Notes: generated from the letters alone by a model not told the origin. A stretch of 51,648 nucleotides of DNA from Folioceros fuciformis (GCA_049999805.1 JBNGIO010006279.1:436167-487814); one strand, 5' to 3'. Counted from the stretch's first letter, positions 3,796 to 36,267 are shown. Numbers and translations: made by a program.

Positions 3796-5118
3796 TGTGA
3801 GGAGGACAAGGGGGACAAACAAACGGTAGGGAATGAAATGACCACTTTTATTTCACAACCCATGAGTGCAAGGCAAAGCTACAAAGGGTCTCACCCCACA
3901 ACAAACACGTTCTTAAGGCATTGGATGAAGGATCGCTAGGGGAGAAACATGATGAAGGAGGAGAGGAGAAAGCAAGGTCTCTTTATTGCAAAGGAGCTCA
4001 AGAGGGTATTCATACCCTCTAGAAGAGCTCCGAAGGAAGCTTCACAAGAAGCTCACAGGAAGCTGCACAAAAAGCTTTCTAAAGATTAGCTTAAGCCAAT
4101 CTAAACAAATGATACTTAATTAGACACTAATCTTATACTAAACACATTAGTCTAAGCATATTGGGCTTTAATAACCCTACAACCTCCCACTTAAAGGCCA
4201 ATTTACCTTCATAGGAGAGTGGTCTACCTCATGCCCGTGAGTGTTCGAGCTTGTGCGAATTGCTCCGTATAGAGCCCCTTGGTAAGAATATCTATAGGGT
4301 TCTAAGTGGTGTGAACTTTAACAAGCTGTACCCTCTTGTTTTCCAACACCCCTCGAATGAAGTGATACTTCACTTCCACATGTTTGGTCTTCGCATGAAA
4401 CACTGGATTCTTTGCCAATTGGATAGCACTTTGGCTATCACAATGCAACACTGGCAGCTCAACCTTGATCCCCAAGTCTTCCACTAAACGAGCAAGCTAC
4501 ATGGCTTCTTTGCAAGCCTCAGTCGCTGCAATATACTCGGCCTCTGTGGTAGATAGCGCTATGCACGATTGCAAACGAGATCGCCATGAGATTGCCCCTC
4601 CAGTGCGCATGCAGACATAACCTGTTGTGGACCTCCTTTTGTCTATATCCCCTGCATAGTCAGCATCCGTATATCCAAGGACAAATGCATCTTCACTACC
4701 AAAACATATGCACAAAGCTTTTGTACCATTTAAATACCCCATAACTCCTTTTACTGCCTCCCAATGCTTCTTGCCAAGGTGTGACATAAACATGTTAAAC
4801 ACTCCCACTGCAAAAGCAATGTCAGGACGTGTAGCAATCATTGCATACATCAAACTCTCTATAGCTGATGAGTATGAAACCTTCTCCATTTCAACTTTGT
4901 TCTTCGCAGAGCTTGGGCAATCTTTGCCTGAAAGTTTCACATATGGAGGCAATAGAGTACTCAATACCTTCTCCTTCTCCATGTTAAATCGTTGAAGCAC
5001 CCTGTTAATGTATTCAATCTGAGACAAGTAAAGCAAATGCTTATGTTTGTCTCAACGAATACGCATGCCAAGAATATGGCTGGCCTCTCCCAAGTCTGTC
5101 ATGTCAAAGCGAGCATTC
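3796..5118 (-). mobile_element. Ty1/copia LTR retrotransposon 3' fragment: RT-RNaseH, PPT and 3' LTR (3796..4181)
   Basis: ORFs 4497..5036 and 4302..4484 carry YSSAIESLMYAMIATRPDIAFAVG, GYTDADYAGD, ALSTTEAEY, CDSQSAI and HAKTKHVEVKYHFIR, split by an in-frame stop. Minus-strand PPT AAGTGGGAGGT is followed by TGTAGGG...CCTCACA (386-bp TG..CA LTR). Confidence 0.9.
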
Positions 5119-5296: not shown

Positions 5297-5951
5297 CAAA
5301 ACAACATTTTGATTTGTAGCATTGGTCAGATGTATGTGCACATGAGTCTCACTCAGCAATCTGCTGAATGGGAACGTGTGTGCTAAGGTTCTGGTCAGTA
5401 CCTACACAATTTCGAAGTGTTCGAAGATGTTCATGGGTGCCTAAGGAAAAATTTCTAAATAATTTTTCTAGATCAGCCACATGAGGCAGAGGCACTATGG
5501 CCAAAGGCAGAGGGCGTCGGGTTCTTGAGCCACTTCTGCAGCAAGTTGCTTGTGATCTGCCTGCATGTCCAAAACGGAGAGATGTGAGGAATTTATTCGG
5601 GAGTGCCCGATTACCAACAGAGAAAAGACAACCTGGATGTTTTCGAAAGGGATACAGGCTTCGAGTGAATCGAGTAGGTGCCCTGGAGCGGTGTCAAGAA
5701 CTCTGTGATGAGTTTCGGGGATCCTTGTTGCCGTTGAATCCAGGTGCATAGGATCTCGTCATTTATGAAGTCTCTCCTGGACGTATCACCTTCCGGTACT
5801 GAATCCTTGGGGAATTCTCATTCATGCCTTGTGTGTCTTTGCATCTCCACAAACCACCTATCAGTACGCCCGAATGGTGTGGTCATGCACATCACCTGGG
5901 CAATTTGCCTGTCTGTGATAACATTCGTCTTCAGACAACGGTCCCTGAAGG

Positions 5952-8900
5952 ATGCCCACGGTATGCAAACCGGACTCGATGTCCACCCGACAAATTGGTT
6001 TGGGTACAGGGATTCTACCAGGATCTGCAGCAAATAGATCCTCCAGGTGCAGCACTGTAATGAGCCCAGCACTTCCCCTTCTGAGAAAATGTGTGGGTAG
6101 GGGCTGGTTACCGAGCAATGGTTGCTGCCACGAGCAGGAGCAGGAACACGAACAGGAGTTCTTGTGGCAACAATTTTTCCTGGACCCTACCATGTGGTGG
6201 GACAGAAGACGAGATAAGAGGAGCTCCCGTTCGCCTGATTTCCGACGGAAGGGGTCCGGCGAGCTGCTGTGGTTAAACAACATGTTCAAGCCAGCTTGGG
6301 TTGATGAGCAGCTCGGTTCCTTGGATGTGCAGATGGGCCATGGGGTCTCTCCTTATGAGTCCAGCCCACCGGATAAGCCTGAACCTGGGAGGCATGCAGG
6401 GTCGGCAATGAGCGTCGTCACGCCTGGAACAGTGAGCATGTTATGTCAGCAGGGGAAGCTTCTGGAGGCCGTCGGAGCCCTGGAATGTCTGGCGCAGTCA
6501 GACTCGGTCGTTTCCGAGTCTCTGCTTTACACTGTGCTCAAACTGTGTACAGCGAAGAAGGATTTGGTTGTGGGGCGACGAGTTCATGATCTCATTGCCA
6601 AATTTGGGTATGGATCGAGTGCGTACTTGAAGAATCATGTCTTGCGCATGTATGCAAGTGGAGGTAGGCTGCAGGAGGCCATGGATGTGTTCACCAGGAT
6701 GGGGAAACCAAATGTTTTCATGTGGTTCTCCATTATTTCTGCACATTCTAAGCACGGGAAACCTCATGACGCCATACAATTGTACCTTGAGATGCGTAGG
6801 TCAGGAGTGCAGGGTGATGCTCACGTCTTTGCAGCTACGCTTCAAGCTTGTGCATTTGCCGCCGACTTGGAATCTGGCAGAAAAGTGCACAGTGATGTGG
6901 TGCAGAGTGGCATTCCTACTAACTTGTTTGTTGGGACCTGCCTGGTGGACATGTATGCAAAATGTGGCCAACTGGATGAGGCACGACAGGTTTTTGACAG
7001 CTTAGCCACGAAGAATGTGGTGACATGGACCGCCCTGATTGCTGGGTATGCACAGCAAGGGCGTGGGCATGAGGCGCTTGTCGTGTATGGACAAATGGAG
7101 CAGGAGGGCGTGGTTTTGGCTAACCATGCTACTTTTGCTTGCCTTCTGAAGGCTTGTGCAAGCACAGGTGCCTTGCAGAAAGGTAGGCAGCTGCATTCAC
7201 AGGTTGTCGAAAGAGGACTGCTGGATGATGTAGTGGTGGGCACCTGCCTGGTGGACATGTATGCAAAATGTGGTGAACTGGAAGATGCACGCCAGGTTTT
7301 TGATGCCATGGCCACAAAGGATGTGGTGACATGGACAGTGCTGATCGCTGGGTATGGACAGCAAGGATGCGGCCAAGAGGCACTTGTTGTGTATGAACAG
7401 ATGGAGCAGGAAGATCTGCTGCTGGCTAACGATGCTACTTTTGCTTGCCTTCTTAAGGCTTGTGCAAGCACTGGTGCCTTACAGACGGGCAGGCGGCTGC
7501 ACTCACAGATTGTTGAAAGAGGACTGCTGGATGACGTGGTGGTGGGCTCCTGCCTGGTCGACATGTACGCAAAATTGGGTGAACTGAAAGACGCGCGCCA
7601 GGTTTTTGACATGATGAACACGAAGAATGTGGTGACATGGAATGCCCTCATCGTTGGGTATGTACAGCAAGGGCTCGGTCATGAGGCGCTTGTCGTGTAT
7701 GGACAAATGGAGCAGGAGGGCCTAATGTCAGCTAACCATGTCACTTTTGCTTCCCTTCTGAAGGCCTGTGCAAGCACTGGTTCCTTACAAAAAGGCAGGC
7801 AGCTGCACACGCAGATTGTTGAACGAGGACTGCTGGATGACAATGTGTTGGGGAGTTGCCTGCTGGACATGTATACAAAATGTGGTGAACTGGAAGATGC
7901 ACGCCAGGTTTTTAACACCATGGCCTCAAAGGATGTGGTAACCTGGACAGCGCTGATGGCTGGGTATGCACAGCAAGGATTCGGCCAAGAGGCGCTTGTT
8001 TTGTATGGAGAAATGGAGGAGGTGGGCCTCATTTTGGCCAACAATGTCACGTTTGCTTGCCTTCTGAAGGCCTGTGCAGGCACTGGTGCGTTGCAGACGG
8101 GCAGGCAGCTGCACTCACAGATTGTCGAAAGAGGACTGTTGGCTGACGTGCTGGTGGGCAACGGCCTGGTAGACATGTATGCAAAATGTGGTGAACTGGA
8201 AGATGCGCGCCAAGTTTTTGACAGCATGAATTCGAAGGACGTGGTGACATGGAATGCCCTGATCGCTGGCTATACACAGCAAGGACTGGGCCAAGAGGCG
8301 CTTGTGGTGTATGGAGAAATGGAGGAGGCGGGCCTCATTTTGTCTGACCATGTGACCTTTGCTTGCCTTCTGAAGGCGTGTGCAAGCACTGGTGCCTTAC
8401 AGAAGGGGATGCAGCTGCACTCACAGATCGTGAAAAGAGGACTGCTGGATAACGCAGTGCTGAACAACTGCCTGGTAGATATGTATGCAAAATGTGGCAA
8501 ACTAGATTCTGCACGCAGGGTTTTTGACAGCTTAGCGACAAAGGATGTGGTGACATGGAACGCCATGATATCTGGGTACGGTGCTTGTGATGAAGGTCAC
8601 AAAGCACTAGCTTGTTTTGAGGAGATGTTAGTGGACGGAGTTCAGCCTGACGATGCAACTTTTACTTGCCTTCTAGCTGCATGCAGTCATGAGGGACTGG
8701 TCCACGAGGGTCGCAAGCACTTCGCTTCCATGGCTGAACAGCATGGCATCAAACCTACACTTGAGCATCACAGTTGCATGATTGATCTTCTTGGTCGTGC
8801 TGGCCATTTAGATGAGGCAGAGAAGATTCTATTAGCATGTGAGGAGCAAAGTAACGTCGTGGGCTTGACGTCCATGTTGAATGCCTGCAAACGTCATGGG

Positions 8901-9458
8901 GATATAGAGAGAGCGGTGTGGTGTTTCGAACACATTGTTAGGCTGGACCCTCAAAGGGCGTCGGCATATGTGCTCATGGCCAATGCCTACGCAGATGCAG
9001 GTATGTGGACCGATGTAGACAGGATTGAAACACAGAGAAGGGCAGCGGGGGCAAACAAAAAACCTGCAGTGGCAACCATTGAAGTGAATAAGGAGGTGCA
9101 CAGATTCCTGGTGGGAGAAAGGAGAGAGGATATTGCACATCAGGTAGAGAGTACAAGTGCACGCCTGAAGCAGGAAGGTCATATACCTCACACAAAGTTG
9201 GTGTTGAAGCCAATGTCTGAGAAGGGAAAGGAAGATGCGCTCTGTGGGCATGCTGAGAAGCTGGCTCTGGCCTTTGGTCTCGTGAACACTCCAAGTGGGA
9301 CCCCTCTGATTGTAACAAAGAATCTACGCATGTGTAGTGACTGCCACACTTCCACGGAGATCATGTCAAGGCTTGAACAGAGAGACATCGTTGTAAGGGA
9401 TGGGTACCGGGTTCATCGATTTGCAGCTGGTCGTTGCAGTTGCAAGGGTCGACCATGA
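5952..9458 (+). CDS. PLS-class PPR protein with N-terminal PDF-like motif, E1/E2 and DYW:KP deaminase domain ending GRP (putative U-to-C organellar RNA editing factor); start at 5952 or 6060
   Basis: Single-exon 1168-aa ORF with ~23 P/L/S motifs and 306-bp triplets. KKPAVATIEV replaces the PG box; also HAEKLA, KNLRMCSDCH and the C-terminus RCSCKGRP. Confidence 0.95.
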   Translation: MPTVCKPDSMSTRQIGLGTGILPGSAANRSSRCSTVMSPALPLLRKCVGRGWLPSNGCCHEQEQEHEQEFLWQQFFLDPTMWWDRRRDKRSSRSPDFRRKGSGELLWLNNMFKPAWVDEQLGSLDVQMGHGVSPYESSPPDKPEPGRHAGSAMSVVTPGTVSMLCQQGKLLEAVGALECLAQSDSVVSESLLYTVLKLCTAKKDLVVGRRVHDLIAKFGYGSSAYLKNHVLRMYASGGRLQEAMDVFTRMGKPNVFMWFSIISAHSKHGKPHDAIQLYLEMRRSGVQGDAHVFAATLQACAFAADLESGRKVHSDVVQSGIPTNLFVGTCLVDMYAKCGQLDEARQVFDSLATKNVVTWTALIAGYAQQGRGHEALVVYGQMEQEGVVLANHATFACLLKACASTGALQKGRQLHSQVVERGLLDDVVVGTCLVDMYAKCGELEDARQVFDAMATKDVVTWTVLIAGYGQQGCGQEALVVYEQMEQEDLLLANDATFACLLKACASTGALQTGRRLHSQIVERGLLDDVVVGSCLVDMYAKLGELKDARQVFDMMNTKNVVTWNALIVGYVQQGLGHEALVVYGQMEQEGLMSANHVTFASLLKACASTGSLQKGRQLHTQIVERGLLDDNVLGSCLLDMYTKCGELEDARQVFNTMASKDVVTWTALMAGYAQQGFGQEALVLYGEMEEVGLILANNVTFACLLKACAGTGALQTGRQLHSQIVERGLLADVLVGNGLVDMYAKCGELEDARQVFDSMNSKDVVTWNALIAGYTQQGLGQEALVVYGEMEEAGLILSDHVTFACLLKACASTGALQKGMQLHSQIVKRGLLDNAVLNNCLVDMYAKCGKLDSARRVFDSLATKDVVTWNAMISGYGACDEGHKALACFEEMLVDGVQPDDATFTCLLAACSHEGLVHEGRKHFASMAEQHGIKPTLEHHSCMIDLLGRAGHLDEAEKILLACEEQSNVVGLTSMLNACKRHGDIERAVWCFEHIVRLDPQRASAYVLMANAYADAGMWTDVDRIETQRRAAGANKKPAVATIEVNKEVHRFLVGERREDIAHQVESTSARLKQEGHIPHTKLVLKPMSEKGKEDALCGHAEKLALAFGLVNTPSGTPLIVTKNLRMCSDCHTSTEIMSRLEQRDIVVRDGYRVHRFAAGRCSCKGRP

Positions 9459-10037: not shown

Positions 10038-12023
10038 ATGTCGTGCCACGCCCTGGCACTGCAGCCGGTGAACGGGAATGACATCCTGCTGCAATCGAGG
10101 GAATGGTTCCCCCCAGCGAGAGCTTCCAACGCCAGCACCACCTTCAGACGTGCTCGGGCAGTATACTCCGGCAGGGGCCAGTCCCTGGAGTCCTTGGAGG
10201 CGTTCGGGGTTGGGATGGGAGATGATGCAATCACGGCCTCCACAGGACAGGTGGTCTTAGGCAAGGAGGACAAGTACCGGGTGGTGTACCGGCTGGTGAG
10301 CGCCGTGTATGTGCTCGGGATCACCAGCGCAGATGACGAGAACAACAACGTGTTCGAGTGTGCTGCCACTGTCAACCAGGCCGTCAGTGTTCTGGTGGCT
10401 GCTTGCAAGGGGATCGATGTCACTGCGGACAAGCTCATGCGGAAGTATACGGAAGTGTACATGGCTCTGGATATGGTGTTGCACGGGGTCAGCACGGCCC
10501 GGCTTGGCACGATCTTGGCAACAATGCATGGGGAAGGTCTGCAGTCTGTTGTCACGGGTACTGATTTGGAGAACCGGGCTCGCGGTGCCAGCCAGTGGAG
10601 CCAGTTCAAGGGGCAGTCGGTTGCGCGGATCGCTAACATCGATGTGTTTGCTGCTGCTATGTTTGAGCTGCCGGAGGAAACCTTAGCTGCGGGAGACGAG
10701 GTGGCTGCGGCGCTAGGGCCTCCGTTGCACAGCGCTGGGGATGCGGCAGTTGTGCAGAAGCCTCCGGAGCCGAAGAAGCCAGTCTCGGAGGATCCGTTTG
10801 AGGCAAGCACAGCTCTGATTGATCCGCAGAACATTGCCGGGGATTTCCAGAAGAGCAAGGAAGCTCCTTCCGATCCGACGTTGGCTCTTGCTGGCCTTGA
10901 AGTGACGGCTACTATAGCTCCTGAGACTGCGGCTGAGTCTACGTATGTCGGATTGGAAGGTTTCGAAGGTGATTACGGGGGTGTTGATTTTGAGGCAGAG
11001 GACGATGGTTTCAGTGGACTGGGAGCTGCTTTCGAAGGATTGGATGGCGCATTTGGTGGAGGCTTGGACGTTTCGGAATACGACGGGGCTTTGAAGACTC
11101 CTTTAGATAAGGGACTGGCCGGTTTAGAGGAGTTGCAAGGTGGAGGTGGCAAGAAGGCTGACAGTGCGGTTGCTGAAAATGCCAAGTCAACTGCTGCACT
11201 AGGATTTCTTGCTGCTTCTGATGCCGCTGGTGGTGTGGAGCCTGTCGCGGCGGCTGGCCCTCCCCAGAAGGAGTCCTTAGTCGTCTCCCTTGCTGAAGAG
11301 TTTTTCGCAGTATTTGATGGCCTACAACTCGCCCGTGTTGGACTTCAGGGCACCTTGAAGGTCAAGACTCCATCTAGTGGGCAAGAAAGTGTGGAATTTT
11401 CTTTCAACCTCGAGGGTGCAGCGGGCATAAAGAAGGCCGTTTTAAAACATGAGTTTGCCAGCAACGTGGGGGAGGGGCTATACCATGTTCGGGTGCCTCC
11501 AGTGGACGGGCCAGTGACTGTCTTGAGGTATCGGCTAGAACCTCGGTTTACTCCAATTCCTCTGCGGGTTAGACTGGTCACCTCCAAGAGTAATACATCT
11601 ATTACCTTTCTCGTTCAGTACGTTGCCAACCCCTATTTGCCAGGAGTTCTGAAGGATGTAGCTTTTATCGCGTCTTTACCTTCCAGTCCAACGTTCGTCA
11701 AGATGTCGCCGCATGGTTATCTTGATCGGAAGGGGAAACAGGTGAAATGGATCATCCCTGAAATAAGCGCAGCTTCTCAAGGTCGGCTGCGGGCGCAGCT
11801 ACCAAGGGAGCTGGTAGGGGATCCTTATGACTTGGACTTTTCAGATGAGAAGGCTGAGAGGGAGAAAAATGAGGAAGCAGAAGCACCTAAGATAACAGTG
11901 AGGGTGGAGTTCAGTTATGGTGGACAAACTCTCTCAGGGATCGTCGTCAATCCTGTCGGGCACGCACCTGAGCTGGAATTGGAACACAGTTACAAAGTGG
12001 CCAAACTTCAAGTCCTTGAGTAG
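10038..12023 (+). CDS. TML: TPLATE complex muniscin-like subunit (longin + mu-homology domain), intronless
   Basis: N-terminus MSCHALALQPVNGNDILLQSREWFPPARA, KYRVVYRLV, NVFEC..VNQAVSVLVAACKG and KYTEVYMALD match plant TML as I recall it. An acidic/Gly linker precedes a C-terminal MHD (PIPLRVRLV, VQYVANP). Confidence 0.88.
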   Translation: MSCHALALQPVNGNDILLQSREWFPPARASNASTTFRRARAVYSGRGQSLESLEAFGVGMGDDAITASTGQVVLGKEDKYRVVYRLVSAVYVLGITSADDENNNVFECAATVNQAVSVLVAACKGIDVTADKLMRKYTEVYMALDMVLHGVSTARLGTILATMHGEGLQSVVTGTDLENRARGASQWSQFKGQSVARIANIDVFAAAMFELPEETLAAGDEVAAALGPPLHSAGDAAVVQKPPEPKKPVSEDPFEASTALIDPQNIAGDFQKSKEAPSDPTLALAGLEVTATIAPETAAESTYVGLEGFEGDYGGVDFEAEDDGFSGLGAAFEGLDGAFGGGLDVSEYDGALKTPLDKGLAGLEELQGGGGKKADSAVAENAKSTAALGFLAASDAAGGVEPVAAAGPPQKESLVVSLAEEFFAVFDGLQLARVGLQGTLKVKTPSSGQESVEFSFNLEGAAGIKKAVLKHEFASNVGEGLYHVRVPPVDGPVTVLRYRLEPRFTPIPLRVRLVTSKSNTSITFLVQYVANPYLPGVLKDVAFIASLPSSPTFVKMSPHGYLDRKGKQVKWIIPEISAASQGRLRAQLPRELVGDPYDLDFSDEKAEREKNEEAEAPKITVRVEFSYGGQTLSGIVVNPVGHAPELELEHSYKVAKLQVLE

Positions 12024-22849: not shown

Positions 22850-25800
22850 TCAACCAGACATAAGGCCTTTGTCTATGTGAAATCGAGTGAGTGCAGGGTC
22901 TCCTTTCATGGATAGGGAAGGCTTTCGTTGGAAGCCGAGATCCATGGATTCTTCTACACCCATGGTAGAAGTTCTGATGGTGATCTCCAATTTCAGGATT
23001 TCTAGGTAAGCTAATAGGTCTTGGTGCTGCGGATGCCTGCTGTCTCCTACCACAAACGTGTGCACCTCCTGCTCATGTTCGATCCAGCTCTGGCCAGGGC
23101 TCTTCCAGGCACCTGCTCTACGTCTCAGCTGGTCGATCTCCTGTGCGCTCTCCCACATGCCAGCCTCGGAGTAGATGTTAAACATTAGCAGATATGCTGA
23201 ACAGTGTTCTGGCTGTGTTTGGGACGCACGGTTGAACGCACGTCTTGCAAGCTCAACGTTGCCGTGTTTCTGGCACGCACTGAGGAGAGATAACCACATT
23301 GGTAAAGTGGGCTCCACTGGCATTTCTGCCAGCAGATGTTCTACCTTGCTGAAAAGGCCTGCACGAGCAAGGAGGTTGAGAAGACAACCGTAATGCTCGG
23401 TTGTGGGGGCAATGCCATGCTCGTTGGTCATGGATTCGAAGTAGTGCAGGCCTTCGTCCACCTTGCCAGCATGACTGCACGCAGCAAGGACGGAGAGAAA
23501 GGTGATGGAATCTGGAACGATCCCTGTCCTGCACATTTCTCTGTAGGTTTCCTTGCACCTCTCGTATTCACCTTGCTGGGCATAGCCTGTGATAAGCGCA
23601 CTCCAGGACCATAGATCTTTGTGGAGGAGGGAGTCGAAGAAGTTGTGCGCTTCCTCCATGCTTCCACACTTGCTGTATGCATCAATGAGAGCAGTTGCCA
23701 CGATGGGATGGCTTTCCAACCCATGCTTTAACACATCACGGTGAAGCTGAACGCAATTATTGAGGGCTCCTGTATTGCTGCACGCCTCCAGGACGCTCAA
23801 CAATGTGACGTGGTTAGGCGTTACGCTTTCTGCTTGCATCTGTGCATATAATTGTAAAGCCTTCTCTCCTTGACCCCGTTGTGCATGGGCTGTAAGTAGA
23901 GTATTCCATGATACCACATCCCGCTGGCGGGAGCTATGGAAAACATGGTCTGCATCCATGATGCTTCCGCACTTTGCATACATGCTAAGAAGTGCGTTGG
24001 TGAAAAATGTATCCCGAGCATAACCGTGAGAAGCCGCTCGAGCGTGCATACACTTCCCTTTTTGCAGTGAAGCCACTTTCATGCGTTGCCTGTCCACAAG
24101 AGCGTCCTGTTCCTTCTCAGCAAGGCAACCACATGCCTGGACCATGCTTGCAAACGTTCGCTGATTAGGACGGATACCTTCGGCTTGCATCTGCTTGAAC
24201 AGGTCCAACACCTTCCCCACCTGACCCTGCTGAGCGTATGCAGCCAGCATTGCATTCCAGGGCACCACATTTCGCTGGGGCACCCTCCCAAACAATTTTT
24301 CTGCATGGATGATGCTCCCGCACTTGCCATACAAAGTAACAAGACCGGTGCTTAAGAAAGTGTCAGTGTCATAACCCCTCTGAACAGCTTCCGCGTGGAT
24401 GACCTTGCCTATGTGCAACAATCTCACTCGCTTGAAATGGACATCCCGACGGTTCTCGAATTCCTTTTCTGCAAGGCTACAGCAGGCCTGGAGAACGCTA
24501 AGAAAAGTCCGACGATTGGGACTGACGCCCATCTTTTGCATTTCAACGTACAGGTCCAGGGCCCTCTCTCCCTGTTCCTGCTGAGAGTATCCAGAGAGCA
24601 TTGCATTCCATGAAACTATATCCCGCCGGGACAAATTGTCAAACACTTGTCGTGCATTACTCAGGCCCCCACACTTTGCATACATGGTAACAAGTGCATT
24701 ACAGATGAATGTATCCCCATGGTACCCACGTCTATGAACTTCAGTGTGTACAGCCTTGCCCTTCCGCAGTGACTCCACTTTGACCAAAATTCCATCTTCG
24801 AGGGCACTTTCTTCCAGTTCTGCTAGACAACCACAAGCTTGGAGCACACTAACAAAGGTCCGATCATTCGGAGTAAAGCCGTCCTTCAGCATTTGGCTGT
24901 AAAGCTGCCAAGCTTTGTCTCCTTGCTGTCGCTGAGCATGTCCAGCAATCATAGCATTCCAGGACACTGTATCGAGCTGTGCCAAGCCATCAAATACATG
25001 TTGTGCATCAGAAATGCTTCCACACTTTGCATACATATCAACCAGAGCCGTTCCCACAAACATATCAGCCTCGAATCCGTGTTTCACAATATCGACATGG
25101 ATATCCTTGCCCTTTTGCAGGTCCGCTAAGCTACTGCAAGCTTTAAGTAAGTTTACAAAAATGTACAAGTTGGGGTCAACAGCTTCTTCCCGCATTTGCT
25201 GATAGATCGTTAAAGCCTCCTGCCATTGTCCTGCCTTACTGTATCCACAGATGATTGCTGTCCAAGAGAACACAGAGCGAGAGGGCAGCATCTGAAACAT
25301 GTGAAGGCCATCCACAAGGCTACCACATTTGACAAGAGCGTCGACCATACATTCACCCAGATAGAGATTTGATTGTAGCCCATTCTTTACCAAATGAGAA
25401 TGCACTCCCTTTGCCTGAGCGACGTCTTTGTTCTTGATGCACGCCTGCAACAAGTTCTTATACACCTGCACGGAAGGCACACTACCTTCCAGGTCCATGC
25501 GGGCCAGGGCTTCCAACGGTTTCTCAACCTCCGCATGCTTACGATAAGTCTCCACATTAAGACCAGCACCCTGACAGCTCTGTACGCTACAGACAAGCAG
25601 TTCTTACTCCTCTCATCAATTTGCAATACGGAGCTCTCTTGATAAGTCATGTGCTAGGTTTGATCACACAGCACTGATGCTCTGCAAGCTTCGATGGGGG
25701 TTTAGTAGGTACTCACATCTTGGGTGCCTGGCTAGTAATCCCAGCAGTCAAGTCAGACGTAAAGCCATCTGGCCCCCTGACATGTTCGATTAATCTGCCT

Positions 25801-26060
25801 TGCGGAAATCCCAAGCGTCCAAACCTCCATGATTCGAAGGAGCGCACGTGTCGTCTCCTTTGCTTTGGCCTACGACCCAATGCATGCTGACACCCTTCTA
25901 GCCAGAAATTGCGAGGCTGGAGACTTGAGCTTGCCCACCATGTTTCCTGACTCTTAGCCATCTTCGATGAAATCCAGCAACTGCGTCCTCTCTCCCTGTT
26001 TCTGCATTTTCCCAGTGCAGACTCGTTCGAGATAATAACAGCCTCAGCAAGGCTCTCCAT
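22850..26060 (-). CDS. PLS-class PPR protein with LL motifs, E1/E2 and PG-box E+ (no DYW); 2 exons (about 26060-25717, 25586-22850)
   Basis: 901-aa PPR ORF. The upstream ORF 25713..26150 joins in frame through intron 25716-25587 (AT|gtgagt...ctgtag|C). The C-terminus has KSPGQSWIEHEQEVHTFVVGDSRHPQ but no HxE/CxxC. The start codon is uncertain. Confidence 0.9.
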
Positions 26061-26331
26061 GGAAATCTCCAAATCACGTGGAGCAGAGATGCACAAAGCC
26101 CCCCATGATATTAGCTGGGAAACGACCAAGGCAGTAGTAGACGTTAGCAATCGAGCTTTGGATTATCGGTTGCACAGATTCTACCATGTCTGAAGGGAAA
26201 CTGATCGCCGTGCGGAGAGATGGTGGTTAAACATGATTTCTGGTTCAGACATCGAGCTCAGCGCAGATGAGGCAAACTGGTTTTGTAAATTTGTCGAGCT
26301 TAAGTCAAGGCAAACTCTGTCCTCTGGAGGG

Positions 26332-29300
26332 ATGGTGCCGGCGTCTATCCTCGGCAGGTCAGCAAGGCAAGCCTGCAGGTAGGCCCAGTAATTGTTTGCT
26401 TGCCCGCGGGCATGTATCTGGCCGCTTCTGAATCTGGCTTGTAGCTGCTAGAAAGCACATCCCGAATTCCTGCTTGTGTTTGGTTGTCGTAGAAGCAAGA
26501 GCAAGGAAGGGATTTCTGGTAACCGAAACTACGGACAGCCGGGTAAACAAGGTAACAGAATTCATGGATTGGTTGTGGCTACAAGCAACAACCAAGGTTT
26601 GATAAATCTTTGCGCATTGCAGCCAAACCTCAATGATCTGGATTTCGTGCACAGCAAAACCTGGGAGGCCATTGGGCGGGGCGAGGATGAAATGCCATCA
26701 GCAAAAACTGGATTTCAGCCTGGATTCCATTTTGGAGCTCACTGTCAGGGTTTTTCGGGTTCTAAGTACGTCCCTCTTCGAATGAGTCTGAACTGAAGCA
26801 ACGATCATGGCAGGGCACTAGCTTATTTCCCTGCGCCTTGATCTTGCAGGGTATTTCGCCATGGAGGGCCCTTGGAAATCGGAACACGGAGCAGACTCTG
26901 GGAAGAAGGGCAGCTCAGTGAGGATGTTGATGTTTTGGATGCCCTGGTGCATGGAGGATATCACATTCCTGCATCAGTTTGCTATCCTGTCCTCAAGGCG
27001 TGCATTGCAAAACAAGATCTCCCTGCTGGCCGGCGGGTTCATGCACTTGCTGTCAGATTGGGTTATGAGTCAAACACATTTTTGGCCAACCATATCATTC
27101 GCATGTATGGGTCTCACGGGGAGTTGCAAGAAGCCACTGCGGTGTTTTACAAACTTGCAGCACCAGACTCCTTCGTCTGGTCCTCCATCATTCTGGCACA
27201 TGCTAAATCTGGGCAACTTATACAGGCTCTTGAACTCTATCAGCAGATGCGGCAGTTGGATGTGACACCCGACAATTATGTGTTTGCTGCAGTGATCAAA
27301 GCATGTGCCAGCGCAGCGGACCTAGCATACGCAAAGCAGATCCATGCTGACGTTCTGCGTTGTGGGGTTGAATCAAATCTTTACGTTGCAAACTGTATGG
27401 TTGACATGTATGCCAAATGTGGGAGTTTAGAGCATGCCCGCCAAGTATTCGACAATATGCCAAGGCGGGATGTGGTTACTTGGACAGCCATGATGGCAGG
27501 GTACTCTCAGCAAGGACTTGGTTATGAAGCGCTTTCGCTGTATGAAGGTATGCAGGAGGAAGCTGTCACTCTGGCTAATGATGTCACATTTGTGTGCCTG
27601 CTGAAAGCGTGTGCAAGTACAGGAAATCTACGCAAGGGCCAGGAGCTGCATTCTCAGATCCAAGAAAGAGAACTCGGAGGAGATGTTGTTGTTGGCAATT
27701 GCCTGGTTCATATGTACGCAAAGTGTGGGAGCTGGGCAGATGCTCGCGAAGTGTTTGATGCACTCCCTAAAAGAGATGCGGTAACATGGACATCTATGAT
27801 TGCAGGATATGCTGAGCAGGGTCTCTGTCAAGAGGCCCTCGCTCTTTGGGCAAGGATGGAGCAGGAAGGCACCATGTTAGCTGACCCCGTCACATTTGTC
27901 TGCCTTTTGACCGCCTGCATCAGGGTTGGCGCTTTAAATGAGGGCAAGGAGCTCCACTCTCAGATTCGGGAAAGGGGGCTCGAGGCCGTCACGGTTGTTG
28001 GTAACAGCCTCGTGGACCTGTATGCAACTTGTGGCAGCTTAGAGGATGCACGCCAGGTTTTCGATGGATTGTCAAGACGAGATCTGGTGACATGGAATGT
28101 CATGATTGCAGGATATTCTCGGCACGGGTTTGCTCAAGAAGCTCTGCTTCTGTACGCAGAGATGCAACAAGAGGGTATCATCCAAGCTGATCATGTAACA
28201 TATGTTAGTCTCTTGAAAGCGTGTGCCAGGGTTGGAAACGTGGGTCAGGGGAAGGAATTACATGGTCAAATCCAGGAAAGAGGATTTGAAGCCCATGTGA
28301 TTGTAGGCAATGCACTGGTTGACATGTATGCGAAATGTAACAGCTTAGAGGATGCTCGTAGAGCCTTTGACAAAATGGCCTCAAGAGATATGGTGGCATG
28401 GACTACAATGATTGCAGCATATGCTCAACACGGGATAGGCCAAGAAGCACTTGCTCTCTATCAAAGTATGCAACAGGAGGGCGTGGCTCCAGTGGATCAA
28501 GTTACATTGGCATCCCTTCTCAAAGCGTGTGCCAGCATCGGAGCCCTGGGTCAGGGAAAGCAACTCCATTCGCAGGTTCAAGAACGAGGACTTGAAGGTG
28601 ATGTGGTTGTCGGCAGCAGCCTCGTGGACATGTATGCAAAATGTGGCAGCCTAGATGAAGCACATATGGTGTTCGATAGATTGCCAGCGAAAGATGTGGT
28701 GACATGGACCGCCCTCCTAAATGGGTACGCCCAGCACGGTTGTGGCCAGATGGCAATGAAGTTGTTTAGAGAGATGCAGCAGCAGGGAGTCAAACCAAGT
28801 GCTTCAACTTTCAGTTCTCTTCTGGTGGCCTGCAGCCATGAGGGCCTGGTGACTACCGGTCAATACTATTTCAGATCGATGATGGAAGACCATGGCATGG
28901 TTCCGAATGAGTATCATGTGTCTTGCATGGTTGATGTCCTTGCACGATCTGGCCACCTAGATGAGGCAGAAGATTTGATGCGGACCATGCCACCTGGGAA
29001 TGGCCTCGTTGTGGGCTGGACATCTCTACTCAGTGCCTGCAAGGCGTATGGCGACATCGACCTTGCAAGGCGTTGCTTCGACCATCTCATCAAAATAGAA
29101 CCTCAAATTGCAGCTCCATATGTGCTGTTGGCAGATATCTACGCTGGTGCTGGCAAGTGGGCGGATGCAGTCTCCATACAAGCCTTGAGAAAGTCAGCTG
29201 GTGCTTCCAAGAAGCCTGCCATGGCCTGGATCGAGGTGGACAACAAGGTTCACTCCTTTATTGTTGGGGAAAACAGGGCTGACATCTCATGCAAGTTAAG

Positions 29301-29613
29301 AAGTGTAAACCTGCGGGTAGCAGAGAAAGCAGGTTATATTCCGCACCCTGAGCTAACTATGAATCCACCATCAGATAAGGACGATGAAGCTGCCTTGTGT
29401 GGACACGCTGAGAAACTTGCGCTTGCATACGGTCTTCTCAATACTGCAAACGGCACAACTTTGGTGGTCACCAAAAACCTTCGAATGTGCAATGACTGCC
29501 ACAATGGCACCAAGGTGATGTCCAGGATTGAGAACCGAGAGATTATAGTTAGAGATACCCATCGTGTTCACCATTTTGTGAATGGTTTTTGCACATGTGG
29601 TGATCGCCATTAG
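26332..29613 (+). CDS. PLS-class PPR protein with DYW:KP deaminase domain ending DRH (putative U-to-C editing factor); 3 exons (26332-26378, 26493-26765, 26850-29613)
   Basis: Two phase-2 GT-AG introns join R-rich MVPASILGRSARQACR.. in frame to the 913-aa PPR ORF. Motifs KKPAMAWIEV, HAEKLA, KNLRMCNDCH and C-terminus FCTCGDRH. Confidence 0.93.
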
Positions 29614-29832: not shown

Positions 29833-32800
29833 ATGCTGGGTTGGAGGGGTGCACTTCATTCTCGCAGAGGGAAGCAAGGTCTGTTGTGGCAACAGCTGTC
29901 CTGGATTCAACAAAGAAAATTCTTCGGGAACGGCGAAGCTCCCAAGGCCAGGAGCGATGCAACGAGCTCAGTTGGTACTCCAAGGAACCGTTTGGTCGCA
30001 AGCAGGTCTTCCAGCGATGGTGCGCGGGAGGAGCTCCTGTGGCGACAGTTTTTTTTGAACCATACACTTTGGTGGGACAACAGGCAACACAACAAGGAGT
30101 CCGGCTCTCCTCACTTCCGACACAAGGAGTCCAGCCACGTTCTGTGGCTCAAGAGCTTGCACAAGCCACCTTGGGTGGATAGGCAGCTGGCTGCTCTAGA
30201 TAAGCGGTCGGGTCGTGGTGCTAATTCATCTAAACTGAGATTGCTGGGTATTCCTGGCCCTCGCAGCAGAGCAGGATACGGAATTGGTGAAACCTTAATA
30301 ACTCTATGTCAACGGGGGGAGCTTAGGGAGGCAGTGGAGGCTTTGGAGGATCTGGAGCAGACAGGGTCTCGTATTCCTAGGTCTCTTCTTTCTGCTGTGC
30401 TCAGAAGATGTGGGATGCAGAAGGACCTGGGGCTAGGTCGCAGAATTCATGTTCTCGTCAAGACGGGATACAAGACAGACACATTCCTTTGCAACCACAT
30501 CATGCGAATGTATGCCTCTCATGGCAGGCTGCAAGAGGTGATGGCTGTGTTCACCGAGGTGGATGAACCAGATGCTTTCATGTGGTCTTCCATAATCTCT
30601 GCACATGTCCAGCACGGGCAAGCTAAGCAGGCTGTACGGCTTTATCGTCGGATGCGGAGGTCTGATGTGAACCCAGATGGACATGTGTTTGTAGCAGCCT
30701 TACAGGCTTGTGCGAGGGTGGGCGACCTGAAAGCTGGGCAGCAGGTACATTCTGATTTGTTGGCCAGTGAGATTGAGCCTCACTTGGTCGTGTATAATTG
30801 CTTAATTGACATGTATGCAAAGTGTGGCAGCTTGGAGGATGCTCAAAGAGTGTTCGATGGCCTCTCTGATAAGGATGTCGTCACGTGGAATGCTATCATA
30901 GCAGGGTATTCTCAGCAGGGCAAGGGGCGGGAAGCACTACGGCTTTACCGTGCTATGAACCAAGGGGGTATCGCTGAACCTGATTCTGTGACATTCGTGT
31001 GCCTTCTGCGAGCATGTGCAAGCGTGGGTGTCCCAGCGATTGAGAAGGGACAGTGGCTCCATCGACAGATCGAAGCACGAGGACTTAAGGCTGATGTGGT
31101 TGTAGGTTGCAGTCTGGTAAACATGTATGCAAAGTGTGGCAGTCTAGAGGATGCTCAGTTTGTGTTTGACGGTCTTCCTCGGAAGGATGTGGTGACGTGG
31201 AATGCCTTGATAGCGGGATATTCACATCAGGGCAAAGGGCAGGAAGCACTTCGCCTGTACAGTGCAATGCAGGCAGAAGGCATCATCTCACCTGATGCTG
31301 CCACTTTTGCTTGTCTACTGCAGGCATGTGCAAGTATTGGCATCCCGGCTATGGAGAAGGGCAGGAAACTTCACAGACAGATTGAAGGAAGAGGACTTCA
31401 AGGTGATGTGGTTGTGGGTTGCAGCCTAGTAAACATGTATGCAAAATGCGGCAGCTTAGAGGAAGCTCGCAGCGTGTTTGACAGGCTTCCCAAAAAAACT
31501 GTGGTGACATGGAATGCCATGATAGCAGGTTATTCTCAGCATGGGAAAGGCCAGGAAGCTCTTCATCTTTACAATGCTTTGAAGGAAGGAGGCGTCATGT
31601 GTCCTGACGCAGTGACATTTCTGTGCCTCCTGCAGGCATGTGCAACTATAGGGATCCCGGCTTTGGAGATGGGAAAGGAGCTTCATAGACTAATTGAGGA
31701 ACAAGGACTTCGAGATGACGTGCTGTTGGCCAACAATTTAATAAATATGTATGGAAAGTGTGGCAGCCTAAAGGATGCTCGTAAGGTGTTTGACAGTCTT
31801 CCTCAAAAAGACTCTGTTTCATTTGTGTTCCTCCTGCAGGCGTGTGCAATCTTGGGTGCATCAGCTCTGGACATGGGCAAGCAGCTTCATGTGCAGATTG
31901 GAGAACAAGGACTGCAGAGCGATTTGGTTGTAGGCTGCAGCCTGGTAAACATGTATACAAAGTGTGGCAGCCTACAGGAAGCCCAGAGCGTGTTTGACAG
32001 GCTTTGTAAAAAAGATGTGGTGACCTGGACTGCTCTGATAGCAGGATACTGCCAGCAGGGCAAGGGTGAAGAAGCCCTTCGCCTTTACAGTGCTATGCAA
32101 GAAGAAGGTCTCACTTCTCCTGATTCTGTGATATTTGCGTGCCTTCTTCAGGCATGTGCAAGTGTGGGTAACTTGGCTATGGAGAAGGGAAAGCAGCTCC
32201 ATAGACAGGTTGAAGAGCGAGGACTTGAAGCTGACTTGACTGTAGCCAACAGTTTGATAACCATGTATGCAAAGTGTGGCAGCCTTGAGCATGCTCAAAG
32301 CGTGTTTGACAAGCTTCCTCATAAAGCTTCTGAGACATTTGTGTGCTTCCTGCAGGCATGTGCAAGTGTGGGTAACCTCGCTCTGGAGAATGGGAAGCAG
32401 CTCCATGCACAAATTGTGGAACAAGGACTACAAGATGACGTGGTTGTGGGCTGTAGCCTTGTAAACATGTATGCCAGGTGTGGCAGCCTACTCCATGCAC
32501 AGACCGTGTTTGACAGGCTTCCTCAAAAGGATGTTGTGACTTGGACTGCACTGATAGCAGGATATTCCCAGCAGGGTATGGGTCAGAAAGCCCTACATCT
32601 ATACACCGCTATGCAACACGAAGGCATCGCTGCACCTGACTCCGTCACATTTGTGTGCCTCCTACAGGCATGTGCAAATGTGGCAGCTTTGCACATGGGG
32701 AGGCGGCTGCATGCACAAATTGAAGAAGAGGGGCTTGAAGCTGATGCGTTTGTGGCCGTCACTTTGATAAACATGTATGCCAAGTCAGGGAGCATGGAAG

Positions 32801-33522
32801 GTGCACAGCTGGTGTTTGATGCATTGCCCAAGAAGGACATTGTAGCCTGGAATGCATTAATCACAGGATACACCCGTCAAGGAGACAGTGAAGCGGTGTT
32901 TGACCTGTTTCACAGACTTAGAGAGGATGGTCTACAGCCGGATGGCATCACGTTCCTTAATGTGCTCACCGTGTGCAGTCATGTAGGTCTAGTGAACAAG
33001 GGGCGAGAGTACTTCGAGGCTCTGAGCAGGCACTCTGCCATCACTCCCACCGCAGAGCACTACTCGTGCATGGTGGATCTGCTGGGTCGTGCAGGCAGTC
33101 TTGACGAGGCACTAGAGGTGGCACAGACAATGCCTGTGGAGCCGCATGCTGTAGTTTGGCGCACTCTATTAGGTGCTTGTCGAAAGTGGAGTAACGTGGA
33201 GATAGGACGCCGTGCTTTTGATGAAGCAGTGAAGCTTGACGAAAAGGATTCCGCAGCATACGTGTTAATGTCCAACATCTACACGGGTGCCCAAATGTGG
33301 GATGATGCAGACGAGATGCATGTGAGGAGGAAAGGAATGGGAGCATGGAAGCAGCCAGGCCAGAGCTGGTGGACAGATATGGATGGGTTGGCGCATACCT
33401 TTGTGGTTGGAGATCAACAGCATCCCGAGAGTGAGGGAATATATGCAAGGCTGAACAGCTTGTTTACAGAATTGAAGGAAGCCGGGTATGTATCACAACT
33501 AGGCCTGGTCATAGCAGGATAG
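29833..33522 (+). CDS. PLS-class PPR protein with N-terminal PDF-like motif, E1/E2 and WW-type E+ (no complete DYW)
   Basis: Single-exon 1229-aa ORF with an R-rich presequence and ~27 PPR motifs. KQPGQSWWTDMDGLAHTFVVGDQQHPES is followed by a stop shortly after EAGYV. Confidence 0.93.
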   Translation: MLGWRGALHSRRGKQGLLWQQLSWIQQRKFFGNGEAPKARSDATSSVGTPRNRLVASRSSSDGAREELLWRQFFLNHTLWWDNRQHNKESGSPHFRHKESSHVLWLKSLHKPPWVDRQLAALDKRSGRGANSSKLRLLGIPGPRSRAGYGIGETLITLCQRGELREAVEALEDLEQTGSRIPRSLLSAVLRRCGMQKDLGLGRRIHVLVKTGYKTDTFLCNHIMRMYASHGRLQEVMAVFTEVDEPDAFMWSSIISAHVQHGQAKQAVRLYRRMRRSDVNPDGHVFVAALQACARVGDLKAGQQVHSDLLASEIEPHLVVYNCLIDMYAKCGSLEDAQRVFDGLSDKDVVTWNAIIAGYSQQGKGREALRLYRAMNQGGIAEPDSVTFVCLLRACASVGVPAIEKGQWLHRQIEARGLKADVVVGCSLVNMYAKCGSLEDAQFVFDGLPRKDVVTWNALIAGYSHQGKGQEALRLYSAMQAEGIISPDAATFACLLQACASIGIPAMEKGRKLHRQIEGRGLQGDVVVGCSLVNMYAKCGSLEEARSVFDRLPKKTVVTWNAMIAGYSQHGKGQEALHLYNALKEGGVMCPDAVTFLCLLQACATIGIPALEMGKELHRLIEEQGLRDDVLLANNLINMYGKCGSLKDARKVFDSLPQKDSVSFVFLLQACAILGASALDMGKQLHVQIGEQGLQSDLVVGCSLVNMYTKCGSLQEAQSVFDRLCKKDVVTWTALIAGYCQQGKGEEALRLYSAMQEEGLTSPDSVIFACLLQACASVGNLAMEKGKQLHRQVEERGLEADLTVANSLITMYAKCGSLEHAQSVFDKLPHKASETFVCFLQACASVGNLALENGKQLHAQIVEQGLQDDVVVGCSLVNMYARCGSLLHAQTVFDRLPQKDVVTWTALIAGYSQQGMGQKALHLYTAMQHEGIAAPDSVTFVCLLQACANVAALHMGRRLHAQIEEEGLEADAFVAVTLINMYAKSGSMEGAQLVFDALPKKDIVAWNALITGYTRQGDSEAVFDLFHRLREDGLQPDGITFLNVLTVCSHVGLVNKGREYFEALSRHSAITPTAEHYSCMVDLLGRAGSLDEALEVAQTMPVEPHAVVWRTLLGACRKWSNVEIGRRAFDEAVKLDEKDSAAYVLMSNIYTGAQMWDDADEMHVRRKGMGAWKQPGQSWWTDMDGLAHTFVVGDQQHPESEGIYARLNSLFTELKEAGYVSQLGLVIAG

Positions 33523-33729
33523 ATTGGAAATTCGACAGTTGCTCAGAACTTGGGACATGTACCCCCCTTATGCAGCGTTAATCAGTCGCCTAGTTCTCGG
33601 CGACAGTGTTGTGGACTCTACGGATCCATGCAACTTCAAAATCTGTTGTAGGATGAGATCCTGCTATGAAGGGAGCGATCCAGACTCATGCACAAATTAG
33701 AGAACGTCGACTTTAAGCAGAACACTTCG

Positions 33730-33950
33730 GTAAACACGTCGGCAAGCTCAAAAGTAGATGATGCTCCGGCCCGCTTGACAGCCCTGGGTAGGAATGTAGT
33801 CGCATGGAGGGCCACTGGATAGCAGGGTATTCCCAGCAGGGCACACTATGTAGAGCAAGTCTACCATCTTGCAGTACTAGATCCGTGAGAAGAAGGCAGT
33901 GAGGTACGTACCTGAGGCTATAGCGTTTGTCTGTGCCCTGGAGGCCTGTT
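33730..33950 (+). pseudogene. Frameshifted PPR fragment
   Basis: Translates in pieces as ..VDDAPARLTALGRNVVAW, IAGYSQQG and PEAIAFVCALEAC, i.e. broken S/P/L motifs. Confidence 0.55.
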
Positions 33951-36267
33951 GAAAATGGTGCACCTGTGCACCATCTTCAAATCAAGTGAAAGCTTCAATC
34001 TATGGGATGCAACTGTCGTCTACTTGGAGTTATGTATGTCACTGGCACGAAATCTTCAGCACTTCATACCCGCTATGATCTGAATTCTCTTCTGCTTGTG
34101 GCTAGCAAATGTTGTGCTTGGACGGAGATTTTGGTGAAGAAGACGGTGACTCCGAAAAAGGAGAACAAGTCTCAAAAAGAGAAGTGCTAGGTGCCGGGGT
34201 TGGCCAGGCGCTGCATAGGGAACCGCAGAACTACCTGGGGCTTCCCTGGTTGGATGGCATCGACTCCGGGAAGTACAGTACGGGCCATCGCGACCAAGGT
34301 GTTTCCGAGCTATACTCCTCCGATTTTCGTACGCGTCGTCTTCAATTTCGGTGCGGATTTGGCTTAGCTGCCGAGGAATTATCTTGAGGTTTCTCCTCTG
34401 CCCTAATAGGTTTTATCCCTTCGTGTGGCAGAGAGCTTGTCGAACACACTCATACTAGTATGTCAACGAGGCCAGTGCAAAGCTCTTGCTTCCAATTTTA
34501 ATCTGCGATCTGCATACATCCAAGCATAGGGTAGAGGGCCCGACACAGATTCACATGTGGCAAGGGTCTATACACAAGTCATTGCGAATTCCGCAACGAG
34601 GCTCGGGCAAAACCTGCACAAAATCGCAGGTGCCGCTGCTCAGCGTTGTGGACAGGTGCAATATCAATCCTGCACAGTTGCTACAATGGTGTACAGTTCG
34701 ATCCAGACGTGACACTGTCAAATGGATTGGCACCACAGGGAAGATCGTGCAAGACTCCACATCAGCGGTGAGTTGCAGAAGCTTGCGATTGGTGAAGCGT
34801 ACAAGTAACATGCCAGAAGTGTGCACGTCCACAACATTCGGGACGGAAGTCTAGGGTTGCGGCTGTGAGATAATGCTTAGCAAATGGCTTTGCCGAGAGA
34901 CGTCGTTGGCCACGACACCTTGAGTTATAACAAGTTTAGGGTAAACTTGTGCCGTCTCCTTCATCATGAGAATTCGTTATGGCACGGATTCTTTACGTGT
35001 TATGTGAACTTCCTCTCACACGTGGTGTTGGGTCTTAGGGATACCGTCTGAGGTTAGTGGTTGATGGTTGTTGGTTCGTGATAATTGATGGTTGATGATG
35101 ATTGATGGTTGGGGATAGTGATACATGGCAAGTGGTTTGTCGTTAGTGGTTCTAGTTTCTGGGTAAGGGGCCAATAACCACTAAGGACAAGCCGTTCAAC
35201 CCCTGCGGTTAGTCACGAGTGTCTTCTTTAGTGGTCTGGCGTTAGTGGTCGGTTAGTTACTGATTAGGCGTTACAGGGTAGCAGTTAGTTTTGAGACATT
35301 ACTGGGTGGCAGTAAGTGGTTTGGGTTGGCAGTTAGGGTTTAGGTGTAGTCTATACACCTACGTCCTACGCGAGATAAGCCTGGAGCTAGGCCAAAGATA
35401 TAAATCTTCCTCAAAGCTGACTCTATTTGCAAAACAGTGCAATGCCTTGGTACACGTTCTTAAGGAAGAGAATACCGTAGCTATAAGTTGCAGGGACCAA
35501 AATCATGTCCATGAACAGCTACTTGAAGGACAGTCTGCTACCGGGAAAAGGGCCACTGTCGTAGTGGGAGAAAAACACGCTAGCGTGGTGGACTCCTATT
35601 CACGAAGGAAGCGTACACAAGGCTCACTTCCAACTACGACATACTGGACGTGGCAAATGCCTACCCTGCTGTACAGGGTGGGCATCATCCAGGTTTTCCT
35701 GTCCCGAAAATAGACCCGGTGGAGGATGCTCTTTCGAAGAAGAGTACTTTACCAAAAGGCTAAACTACATACTGTACCGCAGCAGACGTGAGGGCGGTAA
35801 GCCGTGTTTCTATTGGCAGCGCTTGGCACTGCCAATAGTCGGGGAAGACGAATCCTCCCGCCCGCTCCGATCACATCACCTCCACCCTGCTTAGATTCGA
35901 TGACCTGTGGATAAGGCGCCGAGTCGACCTCAAAGCTTGTGATGGCTCTCATATCATATTTAGATCCAAAATTCCGGGAACTCACTGAGGACACTAAGGC
36001 GGGTTTCACACTTTCAGCCAACCGTGCAAGACCACGGTTACACTAGGTACTCCGTCAGAACTGACCTTGGATGGTTCTCCGCAGCTGCGAACAGACCTGA
36101 ACAATGGCAAAGGAAGGTTACGCCTTTCTTTCTCGAATGCAGTAAGAATAAGCGAACATACAGGATTCCACAAAGTAGTAGGCAGGTTCTGGTTCCAAGT
36201 TAAGGTATACAACGATGAACAGGATCCGTGCAAATGGATGCTCACAGCAGCGTGTTGCAGCTCAGAC

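Follow-up and report, generated by a model that had tools for sequence, protein, structure and literature searches.

[quoted passage not shown] The question is raised by a gene in the window analysed here, which is the whole 51,648-nucleotide stretch of DNA from Folioceros fuciformis. PLS-class editing factors are usually described as consisting of a transit peptide, a PPR array and C-terminal E/DYW domains, and to our knowledge the native editors of hornworts and ferns are the only natural U-to-C editors. The original prediction, made from the sequence of the window, was that a PPR-DYW:KP protein encoded here carries in addition an OSB-type PDF motif close to its N-terminus. We ask whether the gene and the motif are what they were taken to be, how widely such a fusion occurs, and what it might contribute to the proteins that carry it.

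Layout and class of the gene

The open reading frame at 5952-9458 on the plus strand runs for 1168 codons in an uninterrupted frame from presequence to GRP end, and it encodes a PLS-class PPR protein of the DYW:KP type, GRP subgroup. Residues 1-58 (5952-6125, plus strand) are likely an organelle transit peptide, as predicted from their composition (7 K/R against 1 D/E, 12 S/T and 13 P/G) and from low pLDDT. The PDF motif occupies 6144-6329 (plus strand; residues 65-126), as delimited by an HMM of OSB copies, hhalign, residue conservation and a model of the motif, and is followed by a flexible linker at 6330-6422 (plus strand; residues 127-157), which is Pro/Gly/Ser-rich (9 P/G and 6 S/T in 30 aa) and again of low pLDDT. 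No Pfam family matches residues 36-163. The PLS-class PPR array, delimited with Pfam, extends over 6423-8894 (plus strand; residues 158-981; PPR 3.5e-118, PPR_2 1.7e-113, PPR_1 5.9e-71) and comprises about 23 repeats when estimated as length divided by 35. An E motif at 8895-9083 (plus strand; residues 982-1044; Pfam PF20431, E 1.5e-13) and a DYW:KP deaminase-like domain with GRP end and stop codon at 9057-9458 (plus strand; residues 1036-1168) complete the order of PPR array, E motif and DYW deaminase-like domain by which a PLS-class editing factor is recognised.

DYW:KP domains have been reported to be 132-133 aa long, to have an altered PG box and to conserve Lys88, and the hornwort subgroups GRP and DRH are named from their final three residues (PMC9478123, PMC11845758). 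The domain encoded here matches Pfam DYW_deaminase over residues 1076-1166 (E 7.7e-31), is 133 aa long, reads KKPAVA at 1036 in place of the PG box, and retains the zinc-binding HxE...CxxC as HAE at 1100 (HAEKLA) and CSDC at 1128 (CSDCH). It ends in CSCKGRP, and a Lys stands at domain position 88 when counting from KKPAVA, a numbering start that is an assumption. Because the KP box, the 133-aa length, Lys88 and the GRP end fit the published description, we assign the protein to the GRP subgroup, and the DYW:KP classification of the original prediction stands. By this type the product is a candidate U-to-C editor. With the hornwort GRP PPR-DYW:KP proteins it shares the PLS array, the E motif and all of the domain features just listed; it differs in what precedes the array, since the published descriptions, in the parts of those papers available to us, give PPR motifs and C-terminal domains only (PMC9478123, PMC11845758). 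The designer DYW:KP proteins differ at the same place, having a thioredoxin/His tag where this product has presequence, PDF module and linker (PMC9478123).

A PDF motif of the OSB family

The PDF motif has been defined as a stretch of about 50 aa with a conserved Pro-Asp-Phe signature (PMC6963530), and such a stretch is found here. Its conserved core is the 52-aa peptide FLWQQFFLDPTMWWDRRRDKRSSRSPDFRRKGSGELLWLNNMFKPAWVDEQL, which corresponds to residues 70-121 of the 1168-aa product (coding bases 6159-6314, plus strand) and has the signature SPDF at residues 94-97. The motif had been placed between presequence and PPR array, which holds for these residues; of the predicted interval 6156-6314 the end is correct, and the start lies one codon too early (6156 begins the preceding Glu codon and the true start is 6159).

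Searching 1.84 billion representative proteins with residues 62-126 by phmmer brought up 573 matches at E<=1e-3; E<=1e-10 is reached by 131 of these and E<=1e-30 by 15, and many of the matched proteins hold several copies of the motif in tandem. Among the best 150 of the 573, 32 have the Pfam SSB domain PF00436 upstream of the motif copies (10 of 50 at E<=1e-4 and 22 of 100 at E<=1e-5), 11 have PPR repeats (9 + 2), one has a kinesin motor, and most others are without any Pfam family. The SSB-bearing matches fit the architecture reported for OSBs, which is an SSB-like domain with C-terminal PDF copies (PMC6963530, PMC4166229, PMC6451138, PMC13393729), the number of copies here being one to three. 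Clusters of two of them, from Phtheirospermum and Drosera, are named OSB1 by their sources, and many of the best 120 of 553 matches in a profile search with 13 PPR-borne copies are named OSB1, OSB2, OSB3 or OSB4. A word-index homologue search with the single motif and longer proteins allowed recovered no relatives; it was the HMMER and profile searches that found them.

An HMM built from OSB PDF motifs had been proposed as a check, and we constructed one of 63 positions, using only the 60 motif copies present in the 32 SSB-domain proteins. Run with filters off on the 1269 six-frame segments of the window of at least 25 aa, this OSB-only HMM gave two matches, in the open reading frames beginning at 5952 and 29833, the next best having an E of 2. 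The first of these is significant at E 2.2e-21 (residues 65-126, model positions 2-62 of 63), a value to be read with the fact that the OSB copies in the model were recovered by this same query and are hence the OSB copies nearest to it. An hhalign comparison of the 13 PPR-borne copies with 25 OSB copies gave a probability of 99.94% and an E of 1.1e-36 over 62 columns. At the level of single residues, the motif keeps 11 of the 12 that are invariant in the 25 OSB copies, the exception being Asn to Arg, and 16 of the 18 that are conserved in at least 90% of them. We regard it as secure, from sequence comparison, that residues 65-126 form a true PDF motif homologous to those of the OSBs, and the central claim of the original prediction, an OSB-type PDF motif on a PPR-DYW:KP protein, is borne out by the HMM, the hhalign score and the invariant residues together.

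The likeness to the OSBs extends to membership of the same sequence family, with the residues W, WWD.R, K, PDF, LW and P.W kept, and, as far as the predicted presequence indicates, to life as an organelle protein. The differences lie in the surroundings. Where OSBs have 1-5 C-terminal copies, there is a single N-terminal copy here, and it is attached to a PPR array; no PF00436 match, hence no SSB-like OB fold, was found with Pfam in the product at E<=1; and the PPR-borne signature reads KP.WVD, whereas in OSBs P.WV is followed by K, L or similar. We considered whether the product might itself be an OSB and rejected this, given that it is without an SSB-like domain and that its sole copy stands at residues 65-126 of 1168.

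Other PPR genes of the window

The window holds four PLS-class PPR genes, and two of the four carry the module, namely the GRP-type DYW:KP gene at 5952-9458 and an E-type gene at 29833-33522. The second PDF motif lies at 30028-30204 (plus strand), corresponding to residues 66-124 of the latter reading frame, and is matched by the OSB-only HMM at E 1.4e-17. This gene is of the PLS + E type, with a PG-type box and a shortened DYW region; Pfam finds PPR repeats and the E motif and no DYW match, and inspection by eye of 33300-34300 revealed no remainder of a DYW domain 3' of the reading frame. Its motif keeps 10 of the 12 OSB-invariant residues, reading PHF instead of PDF and Asn instead of the invariant Lys, so the constraint on the module is not absolute.

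The DRH-type DYW:KP gene at 26842-29613 is without the module, and no PDF copy was found upstream of it in any frame of 25500-27400. The minus-strand E-type PPR gene likewise lacks it by the OSB-only HMM. That the module is missing from two of the four PLS PPR genes is an observation which we count against the functional reading preferred below.

Spread of the fusion among PPR proteins

The fusion is not peculiar to this locus. Named PPR proteins among the best 150 of the 573 phmmer matches come from Adiantum, Ceratopteris, Pteridium, Selaginella and Sphagnum. In the profile search, the best 120 of 553 matches include 41 PPR proteins, of which 40 belong to Diphasiastrum complanatum and the remaining one to Adiantum; a DYW domain is present in six of the 41. 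Across the 53 PPR proteins that were inspected, 1-3 copies of the module lie inside roughly the first 350 residues, some of the second matches being weak fragments of 11-26 bits, and in one of these proteins, P0184, another copy follows at 677-737. Aligned homologues follow a common order of variable presequence, motif, linker variable in length and sequence, and first PPR-like helix pair.

The C-termini of these proteins are of several kinds. GRP ends occur in the product studied here and in P0112, which is 47% identical to it over residues 1-340, and canonical DYW ends in Sphagnum P0127 and in six Diphasiastrum proteins. The original prediction had framed the module as a feature of a U-to-C editor, and this framing does not survive: the module is also present on the E-type protein of the window and on canonical DYW proteins, and is missing from the DRH-type DYW:KP gene. 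Because GRP, E-type and canonical DYW proteins all carry copies, there is no fixed link between the module and U-to-C editing. On the sequences compared, the fusion is widespread in non-seed plants (hornwort-like, fern, lycophyte and Sphagnum), irrespective of C-terminal type. No seed-plant PPR protein with a PDF motif occurs among the matches listed (best 150 of 573 and best 120 of 553), which agrees with the original prediction that the architecture is absent from typical angiosperm editing factors.

Contigs from four runs of related organisms pile up over about 5930-6800 at an identity of at least 80%, each run contributing between 1795 and 8033 of them, and at the listed positions within the motif the coverage is 40-121 contigs in each of the four; these counts are inflated by fragments and alleles, and as the RNA status of the runs is a guess they are silent on expression. 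The pile-up over the motif region fits a large paralogous family in those organisms.

When 97 motif copies are placed on a tree, those borne by PPR proteins separate from those of OSBs: the labels change 4 times, where shuffling gives a mean of 29.7 and not one of 500 shuffles goes as low. The PPR-borne copies form two main clusters, one of 12 rows with a starred SH-aLRT value of 98 and one of 23-24 rows without a star; the two copies of the window join P0112 (starred, 96) within the 12-row group, which includes fern copies (starred, 98). The tree rests on 64 columns, too few to decide whether the PPR-borne copies have a single origin.

Predicted structure of the module

AlphaFold2 modelled the motif alone, with a 52-row alignment, at a pLDDT of 92.7 and a pTM of 0.77, as a helix (2-16 in model numbering), two strands (21-23 and 36-38) and a second helix (55-64). 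A model of residues 1-340 of the product, folded with nine homologues, places the module at residues 59-127, with helix 59-77, strands 82-84 and 97-99, and helix 115-127 in protein numbering; the mean pLDDT of 10-residue blocks is 85-92 over 61-120 and 63 over 121-130. The pLDDT is below 50 for residues 1-56 and again in the linker at 131-139 and 141-152, and PPR helical hairpins begin at residue 158 with pLDDT above 90. The module is thus predicted to be an independently folding mini-domain of helix-strand-strand-helix form, joined to the first PPR repeat by a predicted disordered linker of about 30 aa. Its core is both basic and aromatic, with 10 K/R and 10 W/F/Y in 52 aa.

Comparison of the motif model with solved structures identified no structural relative. 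The PDB yielded a single Foldseek match, with an E of 9.6, and nothing at E<=0.001; VIA-align, run on 48,161 chains, reached no Z of 5 or more, the highest being 3.8. This result, obtained with a predicted model, is no proof of a new fold.

What the module might do

The literature offers a ready starting point. In OSBs the PDF motif has been described as responsible or sufficient for ssDNA binding, an activity known only for those of Arabidopsis (PMC6963530, PMC4166229, PMC6451138), in agreement with the original prediction, which had it contribute to ssDNA binding in these proteins. The OSB OB fold, in contrast, is reported to have lost ssDNA binding (PMC6963530, PMC6451138). By analogy, we put at roughly 60% the probability that the PDF module serves the PPR protein as a sequence-independent grip on single-stranded nucleic acid, 5' of the PPR footprint, or as a nucleoid tether. 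As in OSBs, it would bind through its Trp/Phe residues and basic centre. In PPR arrays the N-terminal repeats face the RNA 5' end, which would put the module on the 5' side of the footprint, and the last repeat has been reported to lie at -4 of the edited base (PMC10482289). As the array has about 23 repeats, a module anchored at its first repeat would then lie upstream of the edited base by 25-30 nt or more.

There are two versions of this reading. The module might add unspecific affinity for RNA and keep the RNA single-stranded beside the footprint. Alternatively, it might hold the editor on nucleoid ssDNA where transcripts emerge, so that editing would take place close to transcription. We favour the DNA tether over the RNA grip because AtOSB1 and AtOSB2 have been reported to prefer ssDNA over dsDNA or RNA (PMC4166229).

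In either version the module would assist the editor rather than form part of its active machinery. U-to-C editing has been obtained, both in E. coli and in human cells, with designer DYW:KP proteins that lack a native N-terminus (PMC9478123), and moss PPR56 stripped of its own still edits in E. coli (PMC10482289); since both are active in this form, the module is dispensable for catalysis and basic activity, and we regard it as an accessory outside the catalytic machinery. An accessory nucleic-acid-binding domain ahead of a PPR tract has a precedent in the RRM of maize PPR4 (PMC9459714). The likeness lies in a general nucleic-acid-binding domain being N-terminal to the PPR tract; maize PPR4 differs in being a P-class protein of splicing with an RRM, where we have a PLS-class protein of the editing type with a domain for which no solved structural relative was detected.

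The same module could instead be a protein docking or oligomerisation element, contacting PDF-bearing OSBs, other PPR proteins or an editosome partner and making no contact with nucleic acid. Such a role would suit the report that AtOSB2 is tetrameric (PMC6963530), the occurrence of PDF copies in arrays of up to 13, as is often seen in adaptor repeats, and the predicted flexible tether that carries the module. We nonetheless think it unlikely: the published work assigns ssDNA binding, and not oligomerisation, to the PDF motif (PMC6963530, PMC4166229, PMC6451138), and Trp, Phe, Arg and Lys make up most of the conserved residues.

A bolder extension of the single-strand grip is suggested by the distribution of the fusion. 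MORF/RIP proteins are, by functional analogy only, comparable with the module as accessory factors of PLS-class editing PPRs; they differ in being separate proteins of unrelated fold found in seed plants only (PMC13386178), whereas the PDF module is fused in cis and, among the matches listed, found only in non-seed plants. MORF/RIP being restricted to seed plants (PMC13386178), the matches listed fit a complementary distribution of PDF-PPR proteins in non-seed plants and MORF in seed plants. It might be speculated that the module is a cis-fused single-strand clamp which serves the editors of non-seed plants as MORF does those of seed plants, and which was lost from PPR proteins when MORFs arose; this we offer as a long shot.

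It is also conceivable, and in our judgement quite improbable, that the module is without function in the mature editor, being removed with the presequence, acting in import or sorting, or representing the decaying relic of an old fusion. Its position directly behind the presequence would invite such a view, as would the heterologous editing achieved without it (PMC9478123, PMC10482289) and the loss of the D of PDF in the copy of the E-type gene at 29833. A relic or a discarded leader would hardly be expected to keep 11 of 12 OSB-invariant residues and a fold predicted with high confidence, or to retain the same placement in PPR proteins whose origin is hornwort-like, fern, lycophyte or moss, and in OSBs the motif belongs to the mature protein (PMC6963530, PMC13393729). 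That the fusion is an artefact of reading too long a frame, the true start lying downstream or the locus being a pseudogene with a motif from another, degraded gene, is very improbable in view of the 1168 open codons from presequence to GRP end with no stop, a layout that recurs in another gene of the window and, in several other species, in annotated proteins, and contigs of related organisms that continue past the motif into what lies downstream (records 9-13 and 17-18, spanning 6153-6461).

Novelty and significance

The PDF-PPR fusion is apparently undescribed so far. Our search for literature linking PDF motifs to PPR proteins found none in searchable text, and a mention in full texts, supplements or key hornwort PPR papers is possible. 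For instance, the accessible portion of a 2026 survey of OSBs contains no occurrence of PPR or pentatricopeptide (PMC13393729), that of a 2026 survey of editing factors contains none of OSB, PDF or single-stranded (PMC13386178), and in the corresponding part of the Anthoceros angustus genome paper the expansion of PLS proteins is the only related mention.

Heterologous constructs usually omit all sequence upstream of the first PPR, and the module for this reason bears on the cloning of native hornwort and fern editors and on the design of editing tools. If our reading is borne out, the editing machinery of non-seed plants would include one more component, a module from a family of DNA-maintenance proteins placed ahead of the array in many factors, and the PDF-PPR fusion provides a connection, open to test, of RNA editing with the nucleoid or with nascent transcripts. 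Through its fusion to PPR proteins the known range of the PDF motif extends beyond the OSBs, and proteins with this fusion are already present in public databases as hypothetical proteins.

PDF motifs in PPR proteins and in other contexts

We note that the N-terminal pairing of a PDF motif with a PLS-class PPR array recurs in the lycophyte Diphasiastrum complanatum, where at least 40 such proteins were counted among the best 120 of 553 profile matches, each carrying one to three N-terminal copies of the motif. These 40 proteins (working labels within P0172-P0264) are annotated at source as "hypothetical", and a canonical DYW end is present in 6 of them.

Contexts other than OSB and PPR proteins also hold PDF copies (P0002, P0012, P0051 and P0034, as labelled in our searches). 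A protein of Kingdonia uniflora has 13 copies in tandem, a eukprot protein has seven, and a Striga protein named as an ICR2 interactor has three; a gene model of Coptis chinensis likewise shows three, placed N-terminal to its kinesin motor. These proteins may represent gene-model fusions.

The motif and its surroundings in the window

A second PPR gene of the window (29833-33522, + strand) bears a PDF motif, with PHF in place of the PDF triplet, and a PG-type box, PGQSWW. Its DYW region breaks off after approximately 40 aa, and inspection by eye of the 800 bases 3' of the ORF did not reveal the rest of the domain. Upstream of the DRH-type DYW:KP PPR gene (26842-29613, + strand; C-terminus CTCGDRH) no PDF motif was found in any frame; the frame of this gene is not open before 26842 and has no ATG until 27103, so the N-terminus is provisional.

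Within the presequence of the main PPR gene, the block at 6041-6102 (aa 31-51) is spread about as widely as the motif among contigs of related organisms (aligned at ≥80% identity), and numerous loose ends fall precisely at 6041 and 6102. This block appears to be a presequence segment conserved among paralogues. A 140-aa antisense ORF overlapping the motif region (5861-6283, - strand) is taken as a chance occurrence, its only support being the openness of the frame.

As to the neighbouring ORFs, the 161-aa ORF at 4497-4982 (- strand) had no Pfam match at 1e-5 and looks like a copia-type pol remnant. Downstream lie an ORF for a 661-aa protein whose mu-homology domain is of the adaptor-complex or muniscin type (10038-12023, + strand) and an ORF containing fragments of polyphenol oxidase type, namely tyrosinase, PPO1_DWL and PPO1_KFDV (43949-45043, - strand).
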